Part shown: positions 12,322 to 48,695 of the stretch, one piece after another
Numbering within the stretch: position 1 is the first letter of the stretch
How the letters are laid out: each line of letters opens with the position of its first letter
DNA from: a bacterium
GTDB lineage: Bacteria; Patescibacteriota; Minisyncoccia; UBA6257; GWB1-50-10
Assembly (NCBI GenBank): GCA_021814165.1
Contig: JAKAIX010000002.1
Span: forward strand, 136,501-200,500
Direction: 5' to 3'
DNA: 64,000 nucleotides
Notes under the pieces: model-generated
Told to the model about the DNA's origin: nothing
The model's database searches: none
The model's input: the letters and a program-made list of their open reading frames with translations, nothing else
Program-made: the position numbers and the translations under genes

Positions 12322-12837
12322 TTATCGCTCCCTGATTTTTAGAAGCGCGCGCGGTATTTTTTCCACCTCGACGAAGGTGTCCGCCGCCTCCTTTATTTTT
12401 GCCGATGCCGTTCTCGAGAACGCCGCAACATGCACTTCTTTCCCGAGCCCCCATTTCAGGTACTCGATGAGTGGAACGAAGTCGCCGTCGCCCGTGATGA
12501 GCACGACCACGTCAAGCGAAGACGCCATCCGAATCGCATCGACTGCCATCCCGACGTCCCAGTCCCCCTTTTTCGTCCCGTCGGCGAAGATCTGGAGATC
12601 TTTGGTGCGGAGATCGAAACCGCTCTTCCTCAGGGCGTCGAAAAAGGTATCCTCTCTTGTCGCGGGATCGCTTTTCACGACGTACGCGAATGCGCGCACG
12701 AATTGGCGGGTCCCTATAACCGACCGAAGAAGTTCTTTAAAGTTCACCCGCGCACGGTACAAGTTTTTCGCAGAATGGTAAATATTCTGCGCATCAAGGA
12801 AGATGCCCACGCGCTGATTCGGATTCATGTGTGACAT
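12322..12837 (-). CDS. NYN/LabA-like (PIN-fold) domain protein.
   Basis: Sequence GIFLDAQNIYHSAKNLYRARVNFKELL...VVLITGDGDFVPLIEYLKWGLGKEVHV matches the NYN (DUF88) acidic-residue pattern. Confidence 0.7.
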   Translation of the reverse strand: MSHMNPNQRVGIFLDAQNIYHSAKNLYRARVNFKELLRSVIGTRQFVRAFAYVVKSDPATREDTFFDALRKSGFDLRTKDLQIFADGTKKGDWDVGMAVDAIRMASSLDVVVLITGDGDFVPLIEYLKWGLGKEVHVAAFSRTASAKIKEAADTFVEVEKIPRALLKIRER

Positions 12838-13295: not shown

Positions 13296-13352
13296 GTTTT
13301 GTTGTTGGGCACGCCCCCGTTTTGCGACAGATAGTGATACAATACAAGTGAA

Positions 13353-14240
13353 ATGAGCGAGATCGAAAAATATTTGAAGGAATACCTCGATTATCTCGAG
13401 GTGGAAAAAAACCGCTCCCCGAAAACGCGCGAGAACTACGAGCGCTATCTCTCTCGGTTTGTGGCGACAATAAAAATTAAAACGCTCGGTGATGTCACCG
13501 AGGAGTCGATACGGGAATTCAGGGTGCGGCTCTCGCATGAGAATTTGAAGAAGATCAGCCAGAGTTATTATGTGATCGCGATCAGGAACTTTCTGAAATA
13601 TCTCGTGAAGCGGGGCGTTAAGGCGCTTCCGCCGGACAGAATCGAGCTTCCGAAGGTTTCGCGCCGCGATATCGAGACGCTTGAGTACGGGGAGCTTGAG
13701 CGGCTCGTCGCCGCGCCGAAGATATCAACATTCCGCGGACTCCGCGATAAGGCGATTTTAGAAACGCTTTTTTCGACGGGGCTTCGTCTTTCCGAGCTTT
13801 GCGCGCTCCCCCGCTATATCGATCTCGATCGCGGTGAGATCACCGTGCGCGGAAAGGGAGATAAACTTCGAATCGTATTTCTTTCGGACGCCGCGAAAAA
13901 GACTATTAAGGCATATCTCGAAAAACGGCCCGACACCAACGAAGCGCTCTTCGTAAGTTTGAGTAAAAAGGGGAAAGTGCTCGGACGGGTAACGCCGAGG
14001 TCCGTCGAGCGGCTCGTTTCATACTATGCGCGCGCCGCGGGGATTCCGAAAAGAGTGCATCCCCACCAGCTCCGCCACTCGTTTGCCACCGATCTTCTTA
14101 TAAACGGCGCCGATATCCGGTCGGTGCAGGCGCTTCTGGGACACGCGAACATCTCGACGACCCAGATCTACACCCATCTTACAAACAAAGAGCTCCGCGA
14201 GGTTCATAGAGCGTTCCACGGAAGGAGGAGGAAAAACTAG
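13353..14240 (+). CDS. Tyrosine recombinase, XerC/XerD-like.
   Basis: N-terminal SAM-like domain, then the catalytic C-terminus HQLRHSFATDLLINGADIRSVQALLGHANISTTQIYTHL carrying the R..H-x-x-R..Y motifs. Its codon usage is host-like. Confidence 0.85.
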   Translation: MSEIEKYLKEYLDYLEVEKNRSPKTRENYERYLSRFVATIKIKTLGDVTEESIREFRVRLSHENLKKISQSYYVIAIRNFLKYLVKRGVKALPPDRIELPKVSRRDIETLEYGELERLVAAPKISTFRGLRDKAILETLFSTGLRLSELCALPRYIDLDRGEITVRGKGDKLRIVFLSDAAKKTIKAYLEKRPDTNEALFVSLSKKGKVLGRVTPRSVERLVSYYARAAGIPKRVHPHQLRHSFATDLLINGADIRSVQALLGHANISTTQIYTHLTNKELREVHRAFHGRRRKN

Positions 14241-14296
14241 GTTCGGTATTGGAGGCTGAGCCTCCGCGAGTAGGAAGCTCAGCCTCCCTGTTTTAA

Positions 14297-14381
14297 TATG
14301 GTGCCCCCGAGAGGATTTGAACCTCTAACTCTTTCGAGACAGCGTCCTAAGCGCTGCGCGTATTCCAGTTCCGCCACGGGG
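14297..14381 (-). tRNA. tRNA-Leu, anticodon UAG, type II with a long variable arm; CCA is encoded.
   Basis: The reverse complement folds as acceptor GCCCCCG/CGGGGGC, anticodon stem CAGCG/CGCTG with loop CTTAGGA, T-arm AGAGG-TTCAAAT-CCTCT, discriminator A, then CCA. Confidence 0.85.
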
Positions 14382-14427
14382 GCTCTTTTTTCCTCATTCT
14401 ATGCGCTTTTTCGCCCCAAGACGAGGT

Positions 14428-14456
14428 TTGACAAAAAGCTGTTTTAGTGATAGAAT
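14428..14456 (+). promoter_or_regulatory. Near-consensus sigma70-type promoter (TTGACA-N17-TAGAAT) driving the downstream low-GC cassette.
   Basis: TTGACA at 14428-14433, a 17-nt spacer, and TAGAAT at 14451-14456. It lies about 95 nt upstream of the first cassette ATG, which has an AAGGTAGGAG RBS. Confidence 0.5.
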
Positions 14457-14553
14457 ACAGCCAAGTAAACTTAACAGCTTAATATTGGTTGCAACGCGGA
14501 ATGGCTGAAATGAAATTAAATTAATTGAATAAATAACTAAGGTAGGAGCCTTT

Positions 14554-15153
14554 ATGAAGGTATTAAAGAAAAAGATTTTTCCCGTAACCAGCCTAGCAAT
14601 AGACTGGGTCCTTACGGAGGAAAATCAGGTTGGCGATTTCTGGGAAATCAAGGGCATTGCTCTTGTAAAAGACCCCAGGAGAAAACCCGCCAAAGACATA
14701 AGTATCAAATTCTTCCTTGACGGGAAAGAATACGAATCTGCAGAAAAAACGGATAATGATGGCCGTGCTGTGAAAACTTTTTCCGGCTTGTCATCAGGAA
14801 GTCATTCGTTTGAAGTATTGATTGTAGGGACCGCAGTAAGAAAGGTCTGCTCAAAGGGTTTTAAGGGACAATCAAAAAGTCCCGCGAAGCTTCTTTGGAA
14901 GCAGTCTGGAAAAAGTGGAAATTATGTAATTTTCTTCCAGGTTCTCACCGCAGATAATAAACCGGCTAAGAATGCCGTTATCAAGATATTGGATAAAACA
15001 ATCGAAGAAAGTTTTTCCAAAAATCTTGATCCTACCGATAGTAACGGAACCGTATCCATGAAAGTGGACTTCTCCGAAGGAGAAAAAAGAAGAGACATCA
15101 TCGCTATGGTGATAGGTTCCGAAATTAGAGAAAAAATTCATTTATTCAATTGA
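14554..15153 (+). CDS. Hypothetical 199-aa protein, cassette gene A, with two beta-rich repeats and no recognisable domain.
   Basis: Complete ORF with a strong RBS. Its codons are A/T-ending, unlike its neighbours. Internal repeats are ...KFFLDGKEYESAEKTDNDGRAVKTFSGLSSGSHSFEV... and ...KILDKTIEESFSKNLDPTDSNGTVSMKVDFSEGE... Confidence 0.65.
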   Translation: MKVLKKKIFPVTSLAIDWVLTEENQVGDFWEIKGIALVKDPRRKPAKDISIKFFLDGKEYESAEKTDNDGRAVKTFSGLSSGSHSFEVLIVGTAVRKVCSKGFKGQSKSPAKLLWKQSGKSGNYVIFFQVLTADNKPAKNAVIKILDKTIEESFSKNLDPTDSNGTVSMKVDFSEGEKRRDIIAMVIGSEIREKIHLFN

Positions 15154-15165
15154 AGGAGATAAAAA

Positions 15166-15669
15166 ATGAGCTGGAATTGGAAAGAAATAGCCAAAGAAGC
15201 AGGCATCTCCCTTGGGTTTGACGTCCTGTTTCACGAGATACTTTCAAAGAAGGTACCGGAGTTCGCTGAAAAGGCTCTTCGCCGTATAACCGAGCACGAC
15301 CGCAACGGATTGTTCATATTTATTGCCGACATGAGCGATGAAACTGCAAGAGAAAATCTTATTCGTCGCCATCGCGAGTGCAAAGGGAAGGCTGGTAAAG
15401 AGGATCGTTTTGTGAACCTCTTAACGAGACTCTACTTAACGGTAAAAGATGATCCATCGAAACACTGGATATTTACATATCTCGGTCATTTATCAGATGA
15501 CGAGTTCGATCAGGCGCTGTACTTTTTCGAAAATGATGTAATAAAGCAGTGGTTCGATAAGGTCAGCGATTTCGGCGCTGATACCGCCGGATTCGTTAAA
15601 CAAACAATTAAGAAGATTGACGAGGGAGGGAAAAACTTCTTTGATCAATTCTTGAGAGAGGAGGCATAA
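15166..15669 (+). CDS. Hypothetical 167-aa cytoplasmic protein, cassette gene B.
   Basis: RBS GAAGGAGAT. No TM helix and no known motif. It ends 1 nt before gene C. Confidence 0.65.
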   Translation: MSWNWKEIAKEAGISLGFDVLFHEILSKKVPEFAEKALRRITEHDRNGLFIFIADMSDETARENLIRRHRECKGKAGKEDRFVNLLTRLYLTVKDDPSKHWIFTYLGHLSDDEFDQALYFFENDVIKQWFDKVSDFGADTAGFVKQTIKKIDEGGKNFFDQFLREEA

Positions 15670-15670
15670 A

Positions 15671-16783
15671 ATGATCGCAGGATTTTTTCATTGGCTAGGA
15701 AGACTCTTTCGCAGAGTCCTTGTATATACCATTATTGCAACGCAAGCTATAACTCCCCTTATTATTGATTTATGGGAGATAGGAAGCAGGATTGTGAGAG
15801 TAGCTCTATTCATTCTTCTCGCATTCCCTTTCCTGATTATGATCGTAGCATTTAGTGGCGTTCCCTGGTTAGTTGCTACAGTAACGATGCTTGTTCTTGT
15901 CGCGATGCTGTGCGCAGGGATTGTATTTATAAACCCCCTGCTTATCGGTATCGTAGCAATGAACTCTCATATTCGCAGCGGACTAAGAAGAATAGCTGAA
16001 ATATTGGCGATTGAATTATTGGTAGGCGTGTATTTTACGCTTATGTCTTCATTTTTAAGCGTAAAAGTGAAGATAATAATTCTTCTCCTTTTATTCACAA
16101 TACTTTTCTTATCACTCGCAGGACAGAAATTTGCCAAGGCGATGAGAACAGTTTTAGTTCTTGTGCTCATTTGTGTTTCGGCGCTATCCGTTGTTTCTTA
16201 TGTTATGCCGAGAATATTTGAAGGATTGCCTGATGGTTTATCAGACGTCGGTATTTCCTACAAACAGACAGATTCTGAGAAAGAACTCGTTTCTCAGGGC
16301 GACTGGTTACAGGGAAAGTGGGACGAAGAAACCCAATTGAAGTTGGAAGGAGTACGATCAGCTTACGAAAAAGGGAAGATAAGTCTGGACTCAGCTCTCG
16401 TGTTGACGAAGCTGATTCAGAGACGATCAGAGAGCTTCCGGAAGGAACTCTCCGAGAAATCTTCTTCCGATCCTTCTATGACAACAACTCCTGCTACCCC
16501 GGCTTCGTCTGGTTCATTCCAATCGTTTAATGGGATAAGAAGAAATTACTCTCTAAATGACAAAGAATGGACGAGAATAGAGATTCCTTTCGGAAAGTGC
16601 TACTGGGGAATAACCGGTACGGTGGTAATTAAGGGGTATAAAAAGGTTGGGAACAACCTTGTGCCCGACGATGTCACCTACACGGTAAAGCCCTCTGACG
16701 ATCTTGATCTTGGGAATAAATATCGCGCCCTCGACGTGAAAGCGGAAAAAGGGTTCTGTGATTTTACTCTGAAGGCTGGCTGA
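15671..16783 (+). CDS. Hypothetical 370-aa membrane protein, cassette gene C: about 6 N-terminal TM helices plus a roughly 170-aa soluble C-terminal domain.
   Basis: It is translationally coupled to gene B (RBS GAGAGGAGGCATAAA). The N-terminal 200 aa are hydrophobic and the C-terminal domain is polar with a PT-rich linker. Confidence 0.65.
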   Translation: MIAGFFHWLGRLFRRVLVYTIIATQAITPLIIDLWEIGSRIVRVALFILLAFPFLIMIVAFSGVPWLVATVTMLVLVAMLCAGIVFINPLLIGIVAMNSHIRSGLRRIAEILAIELLVGVYFTLMSSFLSVKVKIIILLLLFTILFLSLAGQKFAKAMRTVLVLVLICVSALSVVSYVMPRIFEGLPDGLSDVGISYKQTDSEKELVSQGDWLQGKWDEETQLKLEGVRSAYEKGKISLDSALVLTKLIQRRSESFRKELSEKSSSDPSMTTTPATPASSGSFQSFNGIRRNYSLNDKEWTRIEIPFGKCYWGITGTVVIKGYKKVGNNLVPDDVTYTVKPSDDLDLGNKYRALDVKAEKGFCDFTLKAG

Positions 16784-16818
16784 TACGCTGATACGGATTT
16801 ATTTGTAATTAATAAAAT

Positions 16819-16860
16819 GAAGGTCTTATTCGAAATTTGAATGAGACCTTCTTATTTTTT
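16819..16860 (+). terminator. Rho-independent terminator closing the cassette.
   Basis: GAAGGTCTTATTC-gaaattt-GAATGAGACCTTC is a 13-bp stem with one G.U pair, followed by TTATTTTTT. Confidence 0.65.
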
Positions 16861-16932
16861 ATACACATGACGACAACTAATATAGGGAGGCCGGACTTCC
16901 TGACGGAGGTCCGGCCTCCAGAGCCCCCATGA

Positions 16933-18486
16933 CTACAGTCCGTACGTGTAAGGGATAGCGATTAGAAAGCCCCACACAGAAAGAATTCCTATTACGCCAT
17001 ACGCGAGCATCCGCGTGCGTTTTGTTTTATTCTCGAGCCAGCGCGTAATAAGCGTTGCAAGGAGCGCAATTGCAAGAAGAAGTGCGGGAAAGTAGTGATA
17101 TAAAAACGTCGCGCGTGTTACAAAAGTGAAAAACGGAAGGAGCGCGAACACGTACCCAAAAAGAAGAATCGCGATCGGATTTTCCTTTTCATCATACGTC
17201 GCGCGCCGCGCGATTCGCTTAATATATTTAAAAAGCGTCCCAAGGACAACGAACGTACTCGCAACCCATATAAATATGTTTCCTATGAGCATAATATCGC
17301 CGCTACTCGTAAAACGCATTGGTTTCATCATAAAGGGCCAGAGATACCATGGGCTCATCATCGGGTTCGTGCCTCCCACGGTGTAGCCGGCGACCCCAAG
17401 AAGAAGCTGATACAACGATGCCTTCATAATCGAAGGATTCGCGGTTATGTTCGGAATATTAAAGAGCGACCCCATAACGGAAAGTTGTTCGCTGGGAGTA
17501 AAAAGCAAACCATTAATGCCGACGAAAAGAACAAGAAACACGGCTATTGCAAAGCCGAAGAAGCGGAGCATATCGCGATGCTGTCGTTCTCGCGTGAGAA
17601 TATTTTTTAGAACTAATGCGACGACGATCGGCCCCGCAAACACGACTGCGGTGAGTTTTATGCTTACGGCGAGGCCGAAGAAGATCGCAGATAGTAGTAA
17701 ATTGTGCGGCCAATACCACCGAGAAAATGTGCGCTCCGGGGCGCCTGCCTGCGCAGGCAGGCTTGGCAACGTCTTACCCACTTTTTCTCCCGCACCAATC
17801 CCTTGCCGCACGCCGGCATTTTTTTTGAAGAAAAAGTAGAGCGCGAGGAAACCTAATGAGAGATATATCCCATCCATAAGAATAAGGCGTGTATCGAGAA
17901 GAAGCGCGTTCTCGAGCGTGACGAAGAAAGCAGTAAGAAGCGCGGCGCTGTCACCCGCGAGCTCCCGGACAAAAAGGAACACGGAAAAAATAAGGAGGAG
18001 CCCGAAGAGCGCGCTCACCATCCTCTCCATTACATAAGGGAAGCGTTCATACGGCTTGTCAATTCCTTTTGTAGTGAACGATGTCCCATCGGGTGTTTTT
18101 TCATTTACTACATATGTAGCCTCTGTAAGATCGTTTTTGTCGTAGAAAAAAAGAGGGACGGAATAAAGGAATCTCCCGAGGGGAGGATGAATATCGAAAT
18201 AAGGAACATGAAGTGCGTTATCCGCGGCATATGTTGCGAAATACGCCTCATCGAAAACGGGGTGGCTGGGCGTACCAATACGCACGAGGTGCAACGCAGC
18301 GCTTAGGAGAAGGATGAGAGAGAGGATAAGAAACGGATGACGGACAAAACAAGGAGACCCGGCTTCCCCTGCCTGCGCAGGCAGGTCGCGGAGGCCGGGT
18401 TTCCCCGACGACAATATATGGAAGCCCGGCTTCCTCGCGGAGGCCGGGCTTCCTATGTTACTTTCCCTACTTTCCCTGGAGAACAT
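16933..18486 (-). CDS. GT39/GT83-family (PMT/ArnT-like) integral-membrane glycosyltransferase. Its N-terminal cytoplasmic tail is encoded by repeat elements.
   Basis: The first-loop motif is VFDEAYFATYA...HPPLGR, the DE-motif typical of PMT/ArnT. It has more than 10 TM helices. The first roughly 45 codons overlap copies of the GC-rich hairpin repeat and palindrome (GKPGLRDLPAQAGEAGSP). The real start may be a downstream in-frame TTG. Confidence 0.7.
   Translation of the reverse strand: MFSRESRESNIGSPASARKPGFHILSSGKPGLRDLPAQAGEAGSPCFVRHPFLILSLILLLSAALHLVRIGTPSHPVFDEAYFATYAADNALHVPYFDIHPPLGRFLYSVPLFFYDKNDLTEATYVVNEKTPDGTSFTTKGIDKPYERFPYVMERMVSALFGLLLIFSVFLFVRELAGDSAALLTAFFVTLENALLLDTRLILMDGIYLSLGFLALYFFFKKNAGVRQGIGAGEKVGKTLPSLPAQAGAPERTFSRWYWPHNLLLSAIFFGLAVSIKLTAVVFAGPIVVALVLKNILTRERQHRDMLRFFGFAIAVFLVLFVGINGLLFTPSEQLSVMGSLFNIPNITANPSIMKASLYQLLLGVAGYTVGGTNPMMSPWYLWPFMMKPMRFTSSGDIMLIGNIFIWVASTFVVLGTLFKYIKRIARRATYDEKENPIAILLFGYVFALLPFFTFVTRATFLYHYFPALLLAIALLATLITRWLENKTKRTRMLAYGVIGILSVWGFLIAIPYTYGL
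18355..18453. repeat. Composite of two GC-rich hairpin repeat units, one with the palindrome CCTGCCTGCGCAGGCAGG nested in its loop.
   Basis: gacccggcttcc-CCTGCCTGCGCAGGCAGG-tcgc-ggaggccgggtttcc, then gaagcccggcttcc-tcgc-ggaggccgggcttcc. Related copies lie at 14251-14289, 16885-16919, 18793-18897, 38995-39036, 43507-43525, 48032-48065, 54350-54386, 54932-54966, 62206-62261 and 63758-63776. The palindrome alone is at 17744-17761 and 50194-50211. Confidence 0.8.
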
Positions 18487-18760
18487 TGTACGTGAGGGGG
18501 TAGATTGCCGTTGCGAGGAGTGCTACCGCCGCGGCAATACAGGCGTAAAGCACCATTCTTTTTGCCTTCGTCACTCTTTCCCGGTCGCCGCCCGCAGTCA
18601 GGAAAAGAATGGCGGCCCAGATAAGCGCTCCTACCGCGAGTATCCAGAACGTGGTGTAAAGGAAGTTCACTATCCTATATACCGAGCTTTCAACTTGGGT
18701 GAGCGAAGTAAGCGAGGATTGTTGCGCATGCGCGACGAGAATTAATGGAATCAGTTTCAT
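18467..18760 (-). CDS. VirB2/TrbC-like pilin-family small protein, paralog 1: signal peptide plus two TM helices.
   Basis: 97 aa with a signal peptide, then TM1-LTAGGDRERVTKAKRMV-TM2. Its size and topology match T4SS pilins, and it shares a loop motif with three neighbours. Confidence 0.5.
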   Translation of the reverse strand: MKLIPLILVAHAQQSSLTSLTQVESSVYRIVNFLYTTFWILAVGALIWAAILFLTAGGDRERVTKAKRMVLYACIAAAVALLATAIYPLTYNVLQGK

Positions 18761-18792
18761 GATTTTATTGTACTACATGGCTTCTAAAATTA

Positions 18793-18897
18793 GGAGGCCG
18801 GGTCTCTGACCGAGTTTTCTCGCGGACAAAGTACTAGCAACTAGCCCGACCTCCATATATTAAGAAAGCCCGGCTTCCTCGCGGAGGCCGGGCTTCC
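18793..18897. repeat. GC-rich hairpin repeats in the spacer between pilin-like genes 1 and 2.
   Basis: ggaggccgggtctc...gcccgacctcc, plus gaagcccggcttcctcgcggaggccgggcttcc, the same unit as at 18421-18453. Confidence 0.75.
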
Positions 18898-18917
18898 ACT
18901 TTAAAAAACAAAAGAGC

Positions 18918-19292
18918 TTATGAGAGCGTTCCGCTCAAGGCGCTCTTCACAATCGTTTGTAATCCGGTTGAAAGAAGCGCAATCGCTGCGGCGATAATAG
19001 CGTAGATAACCCTGTTTTTTGCCTCCTTTATCTTCTCTTCGTTTCCTGCGCCGGTAAGATAAAGAACTGCCGCCCAGATAAGGAAGAGAACAGTCAAAAC
19101 CCAGAAGATGACAATCACCCAGTTTACGATAGTCGCCAAACTTGACGTCGCCCCCGACAAAGAGGAGACGGGCGCCTGGTTCTGAACGGTACCGCTAGGA
19201 CCGACAGGGCCCGTTTGCGCCAACGCTGCGAGAGGCGAGAGCATACTCACTGCGAGTGCTGTTGCGGCGATTGCTTGTAAAGTTTTTTTCAT
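18918..19292 (-). CDS. VirB2/TrbC-like pilin-family small protein, paralog 2.
   Basis: The ORF track extends to 19523. I prefer the ATG at 19292 (MKKTLQAIAATALAVSM...), which has an AAGGAAA RBS and leaves a signal peptide plus two TM helices with loop LTGAGNEEKIKEAKNRV. Confidence 0.5.
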   Translation of the reverse strand: MKKTLQAIAATALAVSMLSPLAALAQTGPVGPSGTVQNQAPVSSLSGATSSLATIVNWVIVIFWVLTVLFLIWAAVLYLTGAGNEEKIKEAKNRVIYAIIAAAIALLSTGLQTIVKSALSGTLS

Positions 19293-19324
19293 GTGTTTCC
19301 TTGTTGTTGCTCGACCTTTTGGAG

Positions 19325-19723
19325 CTACTGGACGTTCAGCACGTCTCTGATGATCGAAACCATGCCCCAACCTATCACGATTATAGCATACCCGATTGCG
19401 GTGTAAAGAATTGTCTTCTTTCCCGTTGCAAAACGTTCCGGATTCCCTCCCGCGAAAATCATCTGGAACGCTCCGATAAGCATCATGCCGACCGCGATGG
19501 GAGTTGCGATTGTAATGAGCCAATCGACGATATTTTTCAGAAGATCTTCAAAAGTCGAAGCGCCGAGCGGATTGGTTAGGGGAGCGGTAGGCTGGATGCA
19601 GTTGGTGGTTATGGTCGCGTCACACACGGTCGTAATCTCTGCTTGAGAAACGTTAGGAGAAAATAAAAAGATTCCCAGGCCAAACAACAAGATGAGCACG
19701 AATAGCGAAAAAAACCTTCTCAT
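19325..19723 (-). CDS. VirB2/TrbC-like pilin-family small protein, paralog 3.
   Basis: Signal peptide MRRFFSLFVLILLFGLGIFLFS, a Cys/Thr-rich segment, two TM helices, and loop FAGGNPERFATGKKTIL. Confidence 0.5.
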   Translation of the reverse strand: MRRFFSLFVLILLFGLGIFLFSPNVSQAEITTVCDATITTNCIQPTAPLTNPLGASTFEDLLKNIVDWLITIATPIAVGMMLIGAFQMIFAGGNPERFATGKKTILYTAIGYAIIVIGWGMVSIIRDVLNVQ

Positions 19724-19727
19724 ATTC

Positions 19728-20144
19728 TTATGTTATATTGTAGCATTGAATATCGGCCCACGGAAAGTCAACCTTGCCGGTAATAAGGTGAAGCACGGTA
19801 TTGATGATGAGCCATCCCGCGAGCACGATCACAAGACCTATCACGGCGCTCGTAATGATTCCCTTCCCCTTTCGTACTCGTTCTTCCGACCCGCCCGACA
19901 CCATAAGCATAATCGCTCCGTAGATGGTCATACCAACCGCAAGGATGATCGCGACCTCGGTCATTGTATTGATGATATTAGCCGCCACCTTGACGCCGTC
20001 GCAGAGCGAACACCCCGCAGCGGATTTGTTGCATCCCCCTCCCGACGTTCCTTTCCAGATGTCGATAAGGGCTGCGGAAGAAACGCCGAATGTCATAAAA
20101 AATAGGATCGGAGCGAGGACAAAAGATCTGACTTGCTTTTTCAT
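19728..20144 (-). CDS. VirB2/TrbC-like pilin-family small protein, paralog 4.
   Basis: I placed the start at MKKQVRSFVLAPILFF, immediately after the stop of the upstream gene (TAAcATG coupling). It has two TM helices and loop VSGGSEERVRKGKGII. The ORF track start at 20201 would overlap the upstream gene. Confidence 0.5.
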   Translation of the reverse strand: MKKQVRSFVLAPILFFMTFGVSSAALIDIWKGTSGGGCNKSAAGCSLCDGVKVAANIINTMTEVAIILAVGMTIYGAIMLMVSGGSEERVRKGKGIITSAVIGLVIVLAGWLIINTVLHLITGKVDFPWADIQCYNIT

Positions 20145-20145
20145 G

Positions 20146-21453
20146 TTAGTAATTTCGCTGAATGATTTGATTGATGGCATTTTGCGCTGCCACAAGCGCA
20201 TCTAACGGCCTTTCTTTGTCCGACACGACTGCGCGGACCATCTGCGAGAATACCCTTCTCGCGGCATTTTTGTCCCGTTCGTCCCACGATCGCGCGATCA
20301 ATGCCTGCCGGGCGAATACGCTGAGCGTCGGATCGTTTTGATATTGATAAAGAAGCGAATTTAATGCCGGAGGCTTCCCTGTTTGCGCCGGGTAACTGTT
20401 GGCAATAACGGCGTTTGTCGTCATTTGGAGGATAAAATCCCACGCAATCGTCGGATATTTGGTTTGCCGTGAGACAACATACCCCCAGTAATCGGGAAGC
20501 GCGATCGGCGTCACGGCATTTTTCGGCTGGGGCACCGGCGCGATCTCGAAATTCAGATATGCATTCCTTGCCTTGAGTTCTGGAATGGAAGAGGCATAGT
20601 CGAAAATCATGGTAACTTTTCCCTGACCGAATGCATCTCTTGCGTTCTGCATCGAATCGTTCCATGTGTAGGCCCTGGAGTTCGGATCGGCGAACTGCGT
20701 GTAGAACGTGAGCGCCTGAAGCCCGAGTTCTCCCGAAAACGAAGGCGCTCCGCGTTCCCCGATCTTGGATCCGTTTTGGAGCATGAGGAGCGAGAGGAGA
20801 TCCGAGCCGGTAGGAATAGTGTCGTCGGTTCCCCCGATGGCCGCTCCCGCCTGCGTAATCGCGCCTTTTGCATCTTTTGTTACGAGTTTCGGCACCGTAT
20901 TCAAGAAATCTTCCCAGCTCTGCCATGAATTAGGGAGCGGAACCCCCGCACGATCGAAGAGATCTCTGTTATAGATAAGCGCGAGCGTATCGATCGAGAG
21001 TGGCAGTCCGTATATGTTGTTTTGTTGATAGAAATCCTGCGTGACGACTTGTGGGAAAAGTTGTTTCAGTTGGAGCAAAGAAAGGGATGTCTGCGGCACA
21101 GGCATGATCTTGTTAATCTGTCTCGGTACGTCGGTGTTCCGTATCATGAAAATATCGGGGCCGGTCCCCGCCGCGAGCGCGTCAAGCAACGCCGCGTCGT
21201 AATCGGAAGGATTTGAAAATCCGCGGTACGTGATTTTTACATTCGGGTAGATGGTCGCGAAGTTTTGGAGTGCAGCCGAATAAGTTACCTCATTGTCGTA
21301 CACGCCCCACATCGTAAGCGTCGCCTTTGTCTGGTGCGGATCGTTCGTCGTGGTACGGAGCCCGGGGATAACGCCCAATAGTACGAGTACGATCGCAATC
21401 ACGACCGCACCGCCGATAAGGAGAACAACTTTTTGAGAATGAGTTAATGACAT
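20146..21453 (-). CDS. ABC-transporter extracellular solute-binding protein (family 1, sugar/oligosaccharide-type), N-terminally anchored.
   Basis: An N-terminal TM/signal anchor, then an SBP_bac_1-like sequence (...MWGVYDNEVTYSAALQNFATIYPNVKITYRG...). The overlapping ORF 20141..20926 is an alternative frame of this gene. Confidence 0.7.
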   Translation of the reverse strand: MSLTHSQKVVLLIGGAVVIAIVLVLLGVIPGLRTTTNDPHQTKATLTMWGVYDNEVTYSAALQNFATIYPNVKITYRGFSNPSDYDAALLDALAAGTGPDIFMIRNTDVPRQINKIMPVPQTSLSLLQLKQLFPQVVTQDFYQQNNIYGLPLSIDTLALIYNRDLFDRAGVPLPNSWQSWEDFLNTVPKLVTKDAKGAITQAGAAIGGTDDTIPTGSDLLSLLMLQNGSKIGERGAPSFSGELGLQALTFYTQFADPNSRAYTWNDSMQNARDAFGQGKVTMIFDYASSIPELKARNAYLNFEIAPVPQPKNAVTPIALPDYWGYVVSRQTKYPTIAWDFILQMTTNAVIANSYPAQTGKPPALNSLLYQYQNDPTLSVFARQALIARSWDERDKNAARRVFSQMVRAVVSDKERPLDALVAAQNAINQIIQRNY

Positions 21454-42943: not shown

Positions 42944-43467
42944 AACTCCTGATCGATTTCAAAAAATTTCATAAACACCTCTCTTAAGAGCCTTGCGTCA
43001 TACAGCGCGTGATGCGGCGGATATTTGTTGGTATTGATACCGAGCGACTTTGCGAATTTCAGATATTTTTCAGGATTGTATCCTTCCGCGAAAAGGATCG
43101 AGGCGAAGTCGATCGGAATCCAGTAGAGCGGTTGTTCGCTTACCCCGAAGAGTTTGTAAAAATAGAGCGTGTCGTACTGGTTGATGAGCCCGACCATGTA
43201 CGGTTCCTCGTCCCCTACAAATTCTCTTATCTTCGTCTTCGCTTCTTCCCGCGAAACCTTATTTTTCGAGAGCGTCGGGAGAATGTGTTTTTTTACAAAA
43301 TCGCTTGTCTCCCCTTCATATTCAAGTTCGAGATACAGTTCTTCGCCGTTCAGTTTTATAAGTCCGATCGAAAGTATTTCCCCTTTATAAGGATCGAGCG
43401 TCGAGAACTCAGTGTCGACAAAGATAAGGTTCTTGGAGAAGAGCCGTTCCGGGGGAATTTTTTCCAT
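42940..43467 (-). CDS. DEDDh-type 3'-5' exonuclease (oligoribonuclease/DnaQ-like).
   Basis: Exo I is LIFVDTEFSTLD and Exo III is HHALYDARLLREVF (H-x4-D). Confidence 0.65.
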   Translation of the reverse strand: MEKIPPERLFSKNLIFVDTEFSTLDPYKGEILSIGLIKLNGEELYLELEYEGETSDFVKKHILPTLSKNKVSREEAKTKIREFVGDEEPYMVGLINQYDTLYFYKLFGVSEQPLYWIPIDFASILFAEGYNPEKYLKFAKSLGINTNKYPPHHALYDARLLREVFMKFFEIDQEL

Positions 43468-43569
43468 ACAGACCCATTAAAGCAGAAAAATGAACACATC
43501 CCAATCTATCGAGGCCGGGCCTCGATAAAAAAGTGGATAACTTCAAGAAGCCAAACCACTTTTGTTTGT

Positions 43570-43760
43570 TAGAGTTAGAAAAGAGATTTATTAGAAAAAA
43601 CAGGAAAACAAGGAAAAACTGAAAAAGCTGAAAAACCTGATAATGCGATGAAACCTAGATTTCCGCATAAACACTACAAAATTTTGGCTAAAAAACAGAG
43701 AAGCTGATAGTGCGATGAAACCTACATTTTTTCAAAAATAGGCCTTCAAAATGGCAAAAT
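43570..43760. repeat. AT-rich spacer with an imperfect 27-nt direct repeat (c/gctgata(a/g)tgcgatgaaaccta(g/c)attt) about 60 nt apart, plus GAAAAA(C/G)CTGAAAAA iterations.
   Basis: cctgataatgcgatgaaacctagattt occurs at about 43636, and gctgatagtgcgatgaaacctacattt at about 43696. The block is upstream of yraN. Confidence 0.55.
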
Positions 43761-43844
43761 TGTTTGTCGACAAACAATTTGAAACAGATTTTCGATGCAG
43801 ATTTTGGGTTTTTTCAAGAAGTTAATGAGACAATTTTAAAAGGT

Positions 43845-44210
43845 ATGGAGATAAATTCATCAGAATTAGGAAAAATAGGAGAGGATTATGCCGTGAATTA
43901 TCTCAAAAACAGGAAATTCAGGATTATTGGCAGAAACTTTAGGCAACCATGGGGTGAACTGGATATAGTTGCGGTGGCATCGGATAAGACACTTGTCTTT
44001 GTTGAAGTGAAGACTATGAGAGAGGGGGAGCTAAAACCGGAGGACCAGATGAGTTCATCAAAGATGAAGAAATTCAAGAAGGCGGCCTCGCTCTATGCCG
44101 GTCGGCACCAAGATCTGATCAATGACGAGAGGGGATGGCGACTCGATGTGATAGCATTGACAAAAGTTAAAAATAATTTCGTAGTAAATCACTACGAGAA
44201 CGTAGAATGA
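43845..44210 (+). CDS. YraN/UPF0102-family endonuclease.
   Basis: GEDYAVNYLKNRKFRIIGRNFRQPWGELDIVAVASDKTLVFVEVKTM is the YraN signature. I chose the start at MEINSS, which has an AAAGG RBS; the ORF track starts at 43764. Confidence 0.7.
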   Translation: MEINSSELGKIGEDYAVNYLKNRKFRIIGRNFRQPWGELDIVAVASDKTLVFVEVKTMREGELKPEDQMSSSKMKKFKKAASLYAGRHQDLINDERGWRLDVIALTKVKNNFVVNHYENVE

Positions 44211-48125: not shown

Positions 48126-48695
48126 TTAAAATTTCGCTTCTACCGCGCGGGATTCAATGCTAAATTCCTTCGTTTCGTATCTCTCTATCCTAACCGCCTT
48201 GAGATCAGAATAGGAAGAGTGTATAGATGTCCACCCATAGCCGAGATATTTCTCCTCTATTCTCGGTAACGGTAGCACCCAATCTCTTACTGGGAACGCA
48301 ACCTTGAGGTTCCCGACACAATCAGTATGAATCATTAGCGTTACATACTTTGTGGTGTCACCGGAATTGGAAAATAATTCGGTGATCATCGGAGGTTCCG
48401 CGATTGCATACCAGCCATCAGCGAGATTCAATCGATTAGCCAACAACTCGAGATTTTCATAAAACGAGACGGTTTTATCACTTGCTTCTCGCTCAGCTTT
48501 TTCAATTGAAGTTTCAACAGAGTTGATAAGAGGAATCACCACAAGGAAACTTATAAATCCGAGACTACTGGCAATTATAGCTCTCTTGTTGCGCGGCATC
48601 TGCTTTTGTGTTGCGACAGCTCCTGCAACCAAGGCCAATGAGGCAAAAAATGATAACGAAAAAATCCATATTAATGGGTCAACGTGGGTGTGCAT
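48126..48695 (-). CDS. Hypothetical membrane-anchored protein of 189 aa, low GC.
   Basis: Two N-terminal TM helices. A/T-ending codons contrast with the flanking hppA and murD. It is bounded by hairpin repeats. Confidence 0.45.
   Translation of the reverse strand: MHTHVDPLIWIFSLSFFASLALVAGAVATQKQMPRNKRAIIASSLGFISFLVVIPLINSVETSIEKAEREASDKTVSFYENLELLANRLNLADGWYAIAEPPMITELFSNSGDTTKYVTLMIHTDCVGNLKVAFPVRDWVLPLPRIEEKYLGYGWTSIHSSYSDLKAVRIERYETKEFSIESRAVEAKF

Follow-up and report, generated by a model that had tools for sequence, protein, structure and literature searches.

Does a low-GC gene cassette that stands beside a tRNA gene and a tyrosine recombinase gene have to be a recent arrival on its chromosome, and if it is not, what could it do there? 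The question is raised by three adjoining genes, termed here A, B and C, in a 64,000-nt stretch of a Patescibacteriota genome of the lineage GWB1-50-10 (assembly GCA_021814165.1, contig JAKAIX010000002.1, positions 136,501-200,500, forward strand), which is referred to below as the window. An earlier reading of the letters (the sequence-only reading) had taken the three genes for an uncharacterised operon acquired recently at tRNA-Leu, possibly a defence module. Based on the comparison with related genomes, we propose, tentatively, that A-B-C is a vertically inherited and fast-diversifying operon of the cell envelope, which may serve in surface recognition or adhesion.

The Patescibacteria represent a large share of bacterial diversity, and many of them appear to live attached to other cells; to our knowledge, their recognition of hosts is largely unexplained. 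The VirB2-like pilin arrays of Patescibacteria have been discussed as host-interaction determinants, and no adhesin of a type IV secretion system (T4SS) has been found in the group (PMC12102498), while the only species that is tractable cannot do without either its T4SS or its VirB2-like pilin arrays (PMC12102498, PMC12857230). All protein assignments reported below are computational, and coordinates are those of the window unless a locus is named, related loci carrying L numbers and individual proteins P numbers.

Results

The operon is kept at one chromosomal position

In the window, A-B-C lies between tRNA-Leu(TAG) and a gene for a PMT-family glycosyltransferase, and the three genes occupy the same slot, with low GC throughout, in the L005 group (L005, L006, L007, L008 and L012), in L001 and in L010+L097. 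Synteny with the L005 group is perfect over 20 kb, in the order LysM-M23, ComM, DksA, polynucleotide phosphorylase (PNPase), NYN, S15, XerC, tRNA-Leu, A, B, C, PMT, four pilins, SBP and GyrA. The recent horizontal acquisition proposed by the sequence-only reading is contradicted by these findings, as A-B-C is a conserved core operon in L001, the L005 group and L010+L097, with the same genes, the same low GC and the same slot.

Beyond these loci, a recurring gene order was observed, consisting of tRNA-Leu(TAG) on the minus strand, a gene for a soluble or helical partner, a gene of the C family, a convergent array of 'T4SS_pilin' genes, SBP and GyrA. The arrangement of partner, C-family gene and pilins was seen in L094, L095, L096, L098 and L099/L100, and the partner-C operon is directly preceded by the same tRNA-Leu in L001, L005, L010, L093, L094 and L098; in L093, where the pilin array is convergent as well, the order is a PaaX-like gene, tRNA-Leu and a fusion of the partner (X) with a C-family domain. 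Among the GTDB species representatives, the closest PNPase is 62-63% identical to that of the window and belongs to metagenome-assembled genomes of 'Candidatus Paceibacterota', which places the organism in the Patescibacteria (CPR, Paceibacterota-like). The PNPases of L098 and L099 are 51-60% identical, which makes these two as distant as L013-L015, wherein the operon is missing. Since L098 and L099 carry the partner-C pair and yet equal L013-L015 in distance, the pair would most simply be ancestral at the slot and have been lost or replaced in L013-L015. The slot content varies between genera, and the PMT-XerC distance is 18 bp in L013 and L014, which lack the cassette.

Other contents of the slot were recorded as well. 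In L015 (5445-7700), an SPFH/Band_7 protein and a multi-transmembrane (TM) protein with a beta-rich tail are encoded between tRNA-Leu and the pilins, an occupant that is analogous but different, because the TM protein is not detectably related to C (the 336-aa TM/beta protein was rejected as a C homologue, the match being not significant). In L099 (8734-11217), the partner-C pair is followed by a second trio, encoding an A-like protein with two immunoglobulin (Ig)-like domains, a helical 195-aa protein and a 179-aa TM protein, of which the latter two were rejected as homologues of B and C, respectively, for want of significance. L099 and L100 are two assemblies of the same organism and differ by one gene, that after the trio, which encodes 269 aa (minus strand) in the one and a 226-aa membrane-anchored beta protein (plus strand) in the other (L100, 10471-11151).

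Neither the recombinase nor the tRNA marks an insertion

The neighbouring tyrosine recombinase is 92% identical and syntenic in L005, 92% identical in L093 as well, and stands beside rpsO-NYN-pnp in the cassette-less L013, L014, L015 and L017 with 68-71% identity. Because it is syntenic and keeps the same position in genomes without the cassette, it is, as judged by homology and gene order, the chromosomal housekeeping XerC. Additionally, the synonymous divergence (dS) of A from its L005 orthologue is 1.13, which equals that of the flanking XerC, S15, NYN and SBP genes (1.05-1.25), indicating that A was inherited together with its neighbours.

The direct repeat of the tRNA that was expected near the cassette was searched for in 13300-18600 and none was found, the sole tRNA-overlapping match being a 14-nt inverted one inside PMT. 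No att-like repeats bound the cassette, which abuts the 5′ end of the tRNA and not its 3′ end. Searches by tblastn with A, B and C against 50,697 GenBank phage records and with C against the PLSDB plasmids gave no match, nor did IMG/VR scans with A, B and C, and blastn of 14384-16860 against the whole window returned only the query itself, with no second copy or paralogue. A diversity-generating retroelement target was also considered and rejected, as no template repeat occurs in the window. tRNA-Leu(TAG) is a conserved neighbour and not an integration scar. The locus resembles tRNA-linked genomic islands in its low-GC, uncharacterised genes beside a tRNA and a tyrosine recombinase, but it lacks an island-specific integrase and att repeats, lies on the wrong side of the tRNA, and has kept its position through deep divergence.

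The compositional contrast with the neighbours, on which the acquisition had been argued, was itself reproduced by computation. GC is 0.40 in A, 0.44 in B and 0.43 in C, and GC at third codon positions (GC3) is 0.41, 0.49 and 0.42, compared with means of 0.50 (standard deviation 0.036) and 0.56 over 53 open reading frames (ORFs) of the window, among which the three genes have GC z-scores of -2.7, -1.7 and -2.0. A-B-C is the sole multi-gene low-GC stretch of the window and has its lowest contiguous GC, and the region is thus compositionally deviant. Because an equal deviation is retained in L001, L005, L093 and L094, the low GC is best read as a property of a fast-evolving locus and not as the mark of a recent arrival. 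Other small ORFs with GC like that of the cassette (0.40-0.45) are found at 43009-44207 and 48129-48695.

B and C diverge rapidly and behave as an exchangeable segment

Compared with L005, the window shows an identity of 90-95% in core genes, which falls to 79% in A, 58% in B and 38% in C. In B and C, the window resembles the distant L001 (70% and 51%) more than it does the close L005, or L093 (C, 42%), whereas A and PMT follow the species relationships and are closer to L005. Synonymous sites are saturated in B (proportion of differing synonymous sites, pS, 0.96) and C (pS 0.82), but not in the flanks, where dS is about 1.1-1.3.

The breakpoints are seen in the closest relative, L010+L097, whose DNA identity to the window (82%) stops exactly at the stop codon of A and resumes at the terminator and PMT. 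Between these points only the junction of the B end and the C start matches (~15627-15732, 81% over 107 nt); its B begins with an N-terminus like that of L005, and for its C (P0010) the match is confined to the TM domain, at 42%. As the identity breaks at the stop of A and resumes at the terminator, the B-C segment behaves as an exchangeable allele between conserved flanks.

C joins a conserved membrane domain to a hypervariable tail

No curated family of Pfam, NCBIfam, PHROGs or PADLOC includes C. A profile search of 1.84 billion representatives returned 45 proteins at E<1e-3, about 40 of which share only the membrane domain (aa 28-175) and carry unrelated tails, and conversely the C-terminal domain of C is found on other membrane anchors (P0011, P0018 and P0022). 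The 42 aligned members of the family, 0/42 of which belong to a Pfam family, share the motifs LW..GN...R, DP (aa 88-89) and E115. The AlphaFold2 (AF2) model of C, built from two sequences, is unreliable (pLDDT 48.7) and too poor for a fold search; its secondary structure comprises long helices to ~aa 182, two more helices, a disordered region at 265-289 and a beta-rich domain of ~80 aa. The disordered region is a Ser/Thr/Pro-rich linker containing SSSDPSMTTTPATPASSGS.

Topology was analysed by the hydrophobic profile and the positive-inside rule over the 42 members. The profile shows five core TM helices, a sixth, N-terminal one being doubtful, and the mean number of Lys and Arg per loop (reference positions) is 2.5 at 97-110 and 2.6 at 150-161, versus 0 at 61-66 and 1 at 126-136. 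Given this charge pattern and an N-terminus inside the cell, which fits the soluble partner fused to it in L093, the tail of C is probably extracytoplasmic. The sequence-only reading had envisaged about six TM helices and a cytoplasmic C-terminal domain, and both points are revised here. Ser/Thr/Pro-rich stretches occur in 14/42 family tails and the Cys counts of the tails are often even; together with the adjacent PMT gene, these features are consistent with an exposed tail, without being a proof of it.

PDB profile searches with A, B, the C family and the C-terminal domain gave nothing credible. A match of NACHO (2.4e-4, 24 bits) in the PDB search was ascribed to TM composition, and P0031 (1601 aa, with PA14-like repeats), obtained in the deep search with C, was regarded as spurious. 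The C-terminal domain has no match in Pfam or PDB and no homology to an adhesin family. All three proteins are uncharacterised, as had been noted, with Pfam, NCBIfam, PHROGs, PADLOC and PDB all empty save for Ig-like hints in A, and the TM domain of the C family, the ~80-aa C-terminal domain, the partner X and protein B are families absent from Pfam.

B takes the place of a helical partner that is fused to C elsewhere

P0009, from the sister species L093 (PNPase 91.5% identical to that of the window by blastp and 90.3% by tblastn), consists of an X-like N-terminus fused to a C-family domain, and its N-terminal 190 aa have homologues in the X proteins of L094, L096, L098 and L101. Given this fusion, the upstream partner X would probably work on the cytoplasmic side, jointly with the membrane protein. 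B occupies the same position as X, upstream of the C-family gene, and is translationally coupled to C; as it has no detectable homology to X, position and coupling are what points to a B-C contact. B was rejected as a diverged copy of X (hhalign probability <1%), and an ECF (extracytoplasmic function) sigma/anti-sigma pair was rejected for B-C, as B contains no sigma70 region 2 or 4 domain.

The AF2 model of B is all-helical, with a core (aa 40-122) at pLDDT 70-88, in agreement with the soluble, probably helical protein described earlier. Fold searches with this model found generic bundles only, and Pfam, NCBIfam, PHROGs and PDB held nothing for B, PADLOC giving solely NsnC at E 0.017 and 12.9 bits. 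Orthologues of B are those of L001 and L005, a scan of the GTDB species representatives gave no match, and a scan of JGI metagenomes recovered only two lineages already known; A and B are confined to one small clade.

A is a clade-specific protein under purifying selection

A has two Ig-like Pfam matches, Big_1 at aa 35-92 (2e-7; 31.4 bits against a gathering cut-off of 34.9) and MG4 at aa 125-184 (3.5e-5; 24.4 against 24.7 bits), and both are also precomputed for its orthologue P0006. Where two beta-rich repeats had been noted earlier, two Ig-like domains are matched, both below the gathering score; A is predicted to contain two Ig-like beta-sandwich domains. It lacks a hydrophobic segment, neither a Sec signal nor a TM segment is convincing, and its N-terminus, conserved at F9, P10, S13, L14, I16 and D17, looks like a structural motif rather than a signal peptide. 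Its orthologues are 89% (L010+L097), 79% (L005) and 52% identical, and dN/dS is 0.11-0.12 (0.11 against L005), namely purifying selection. A possible remote homologue is encoded at L099:8734-9318 (hhalign 63%, E 7e-5).

Pilin genes are constant neighbours of the operon

The array of VirB2-like pilin genes with its SBP_bac_1 gene lies beside the cassette or PMT in every related locus, and no VirB4-like ATPase is encoded within 10 kb of the operon. A distant C-family gene with an X-like partner was found in L101 (2635-4178 and 8915-11178), 4.7 kb from a DUF87/TrwB-like ATPase of the VirB4 or type IV coupling protein (T4CP) type.

Expression signals are conserved across four lineages

The features of the locus are listed in Table 1. 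The three ORFs form a tightly coupled operon on the plus strand, as had been described, with 12 nt containing GGAG between A and B and 1 nt between the TAA stop of B and the ATG of C. The near-perfect promoter, Shine-Dalgarno sequence and clean terminator of the sequence-only reading were recovered and are conserved as well. The promoter ranks first of five sites across 5 kb, the number of promoter-like sites being not above that expected from shuffled sequence, and its TTGAC and TGnTAnAAT are invariant in an alignment of the window, L005, L001 and L010. The terminator, whose stem and T run the scan placed at 16819-16851, is kept in L005 and L001 with compensating changes in the stem and an invariant T run. 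Because the promoter hexamers, Shine-Dalgarno sequence and terminator are conserved in four diverged lineages, they are argued to be functional.

Over the four lineages, the leader is better conserved than the coding sequence. Within it, a small hairpin (14475-14507) is conserved, for which RNAalifold gives 8 pairs with 1 compensatory change, a weak covariation support. No Rfam family matched the leader, and a riboswitch or other known RNA was rejected on the empty Rfam result and the weak hairpin.

Table 1. Annotated features in and around the A-B-C operon (window coordinates)
Feature	Position	Strand	Basis or description
Tyrosine recombinase	13353-14240		Pfam Phage_integrase, 7e-41
tRNA-Leu(TAG)	14299-14383	-	ARAGORN and Rfam (54.6 bits); divergent from the operon
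Sigma-70-type promoter, TTGACA-N17-TAGAAT, extended -10 TG	14428-14456	+	Consensus scan, 11/12 positions
AT-rich 5′ leader, ~97 nt, conserved blocks, GGAG Shine-Dalgarno	14457-14553	+	Four-lineage alignment
Gene A	14554-15153	+	ORF, 199 aa
Gene B	15166-15669	+	ORF, 167 aa
Gene C	15671-16783	+	ORF, 370 aa
C, predicted membrane domain (aa 1-182)	15671-16216	+	Conserved N-terminal amphipathic helix and five core TM helices
C, predicted juxtamembrane helical region (aa 183-264) and Ser/Thr/Pro-rich linker (aa 265-289)	16217-16537	+	AF2 secondary structure and disorder
C, predicted C-terminal beta domain (aa 290-370), two Cys	16538-16783	+	AF2 beta strands; hypervariable
Intrinsic terminator, 15-bp stem then T run	16819-16860	+	Scan
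PMT-family glycosyltransferase	16933-18486	-	Pfam
Four VirB2-like 'T4SS_pilin' (PF18895) paralogues, then SBP_bac_1	18467-21453	-	

Some further observations concern the surroundings of the operon. Several gene ends (14251-14287, 16886-16919 and 18390-18454) carry GC-rich palindromes with the pattern GGAGGC..GCCTCC. A perfect 18-nt palindrome, CCTGCCTGCGCAGGCAGG, occurs twice (17744-17761 and 18368-18385), one copy lying within the PMT ORF. These palindromes may be bidirectional terminators or an element resembling repetitive extragenic palindromes (REP). Nothing in the PMTs of L001, L005 or L093 corresponds to the first ~47 codons of this ORF (18345-18486), which overlap the palindromes; the true PMT start is probably located further downstream. 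An NYN-domain gene (12322-12837) is kept between rpsO and pnp, as in all Patescibacteria loci retrieved (L013-L030), and the GyrA of L093 (14164-17611) carries an intein, with an Intein_splicing match between two DNA_topoisoIV matches.

Discussion

Based on these findings, we propose that A-B-C may be a vertically inherited, fast-diversifying envelope operon, a reading that we put forward with limited confidence as the best explanation of the locus. First, C would be polytopic, crossing the membrane with five core TM helices from an N-terminus that stays inside, and its membrane domain carries conserved Arg, Glu and Asp-Pro residues. Outside the membrane, C would display a short helical stalk, the Ser/Thr/Pro linker, which is possibly O-glycosylated by the adjacent PMT enzyme, and a small beta domain that is hypervariable. 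Second, B could be a cytoplasmic partner that docks on the N-terminal side of C, and A, with its two Ig-like domains, an accessory protein specific to the clade. The operon would be driven by its own strong promoter, with the VirB2-like pilin array as a constant neighbour, and B-C would be swapped between lineages as a cassette through recombination in the conserved flanks. The role would most likely be surface recognition or adhesion, directed at a host cell or a partner cell, or associated with the pilus. In this form, the undescribed accessory system that the sequence-only reading had suspected survives as a diversifying envelope operon, whereas its story of acquisition was wrong.

Several points weigh against this proposal. 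The positive-inside rule is the sole basis for the topology of C, the AF2 model being unusable, and A, devoid of a signal peptide, fits poorly with a surface role of its own, while B shows no homology to the fused partner X that hhalign could detect (<1%). The association with pilins comes from related, syntenic genomes and thus does not amount to independent observations, the C-family gene of L101 lies in a different neighbourhood, and the ten largest ORFs that the window contains besides the operon include no T4SS ATPase. Furthermore, low GC and hypervariability would also fit defence or exclusion.

The envelope reading can be compared with known surface systems. Like the adhesins of Gram-positive conjugation and pilus systems (e.g. 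PrgB), C is predicted to expose a fast-diverging domain on a low-complexity stalk, and its locus, like those of such adhesins and variable surface proteins, is linked to a pilus or T4SS and undergoes apparent allelic replacement through conserved flanks. However, the anchor of C is a conserved five-TM domain and not an LPXTG or single-pass anchor, and the domain is tiny (~80 aa) and without homology to any adhesin family; adhesion by C is putative. In Actinobacteria, Ser/Thr/Pro-rich secreted proteins are O-mannosylated in a PMT (GT39)-dependent manner. The linker of C resembles such substrates in composition, in its predicted location outside and in being encoded beside a PMT gene, but glycosylation of C would be a conjecture from this likeness. 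Linker-bearing C-family members also occur without an adjacent PMT (L094), and the pilins could equally be the substrate of PMT.

An undescribed anti-phage, abortive-infection, superinfection-exclusion or toxin/immunity module, with C as effector or sensor and A and B as soluble partners, is an unlikely alternative. It would account for the low GC, for the very fast divergence of B-C and the exchange of its alleles, for a slot whose content differs between genera and even between L099 and L100, and for the lack of housekeeping homology. The idea, which the sequence-only reading had derived from the gene layout, gained no positive evidence, as PADLOC matches neither A, B and C nor the 42 family members consistently (PADLOC-DB 2.0 gave four unrelated single-member matches over the latter), and as there is no nuclease, NTPase, protease or toxin domain, and no toxin or enzymatic domain from Pfam, NCBIfam or PHROGs in B, C, X or the alignment of the C-terminal domain. 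The same position beside pilins across relatives at 50-60% PNPase identity would be unusual for defence islands, and the variable part is predicted to be extracellular, which would fit receptor masking better than a cytoplasmic trigger of abortive infection.

Alternatively, C could be a highly diverged 'extended VirB6'-like or other structural subunit of a T4SS or pilus, and B or X its cytoplasmic adaptor, which we regard as improbable. The operon would then be part of the machinery instead of a recognition factor. The resemblance is one of layout, since in C a hydrophilic domain in C-proximal position comes after a predicted set of five or more TM helices, as in extended VirB6 (PMC12857230) and PrgH-type subunits, and C-family genes adjoin VirB2-like pilin arrays, with the DUF87/TrwB-like ATPase of L101 also near such a gene; moreover, in some classes of the Patescibacteria VirB6 is reported to be scarce, 'suggesting extreme sequence divergence' (PMC12102498). 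But none of the 42 members matches a TrbL/VirB6 Pfam family even at E<=0.1, tblastn found no homologue on plasmids, no VirB4, VirB3 or VirD4 was detected near the operon, and C has a dedicated helical partner fused or coupled at its N-terminus. For a structural subunit of a channel, swapping would be unexpected, and so would a drop to 38% identity between species whose core genes are ~90% identical, as is seen in C with its hypervariable and exchanged tail.

Finally, a recently acquired integrative element or prophage remnant, inserted at tRNA-Leu by the tyrosine recombinase, is highly improbable and already largely refuted, since the low GC relative to the flanks, the adjoining tRNA and recombinase and the PMT-XerC junction of merely 18 bp in the cassette-less L013 and L014 are outweighed by a recombinase that is syntenic, 92% conserved and present without the cassette, by the 5′-side location, by the lack of tRNA or att-like direct repeats, of a second copy or paralogue in the window and of matches in GenBank phages, PLSDB and IMG/VR, and by the operon standing at the same slot in L098 and L099, which makes its absence from L013/L014 better read as loss.

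Returning to the envelope operon, a more specific version of it is distinctly speculative and, on balance, unlikely: the C family and its cytoplasmic partner might supply, together with the VirB2-like pilin arrays of Patescibacteria, the host recognition or adhesin that is still missing. C would then be a membrane-embedded, swappable determinant of specificity, and its extracellular beta domain would decide to which host cell the episymbiont attaches, or from which it feeds.

In conclusion, the locus provides a worked example that low GC beside a tRNA and a recombinase need not mean recent transfer. Hypothetical operons comparable to A-B-C are common in these genomes, and if C is merely a lineage-specific envelope protein, the value of the finding would be modest, namely a corrected annotation. 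If the proposal is true, a conserved membrane anchor that displays a hypervariable, recombining domain beside pilin genes would be a concrete candidate for a specificity determinant in the Patescibacteria.

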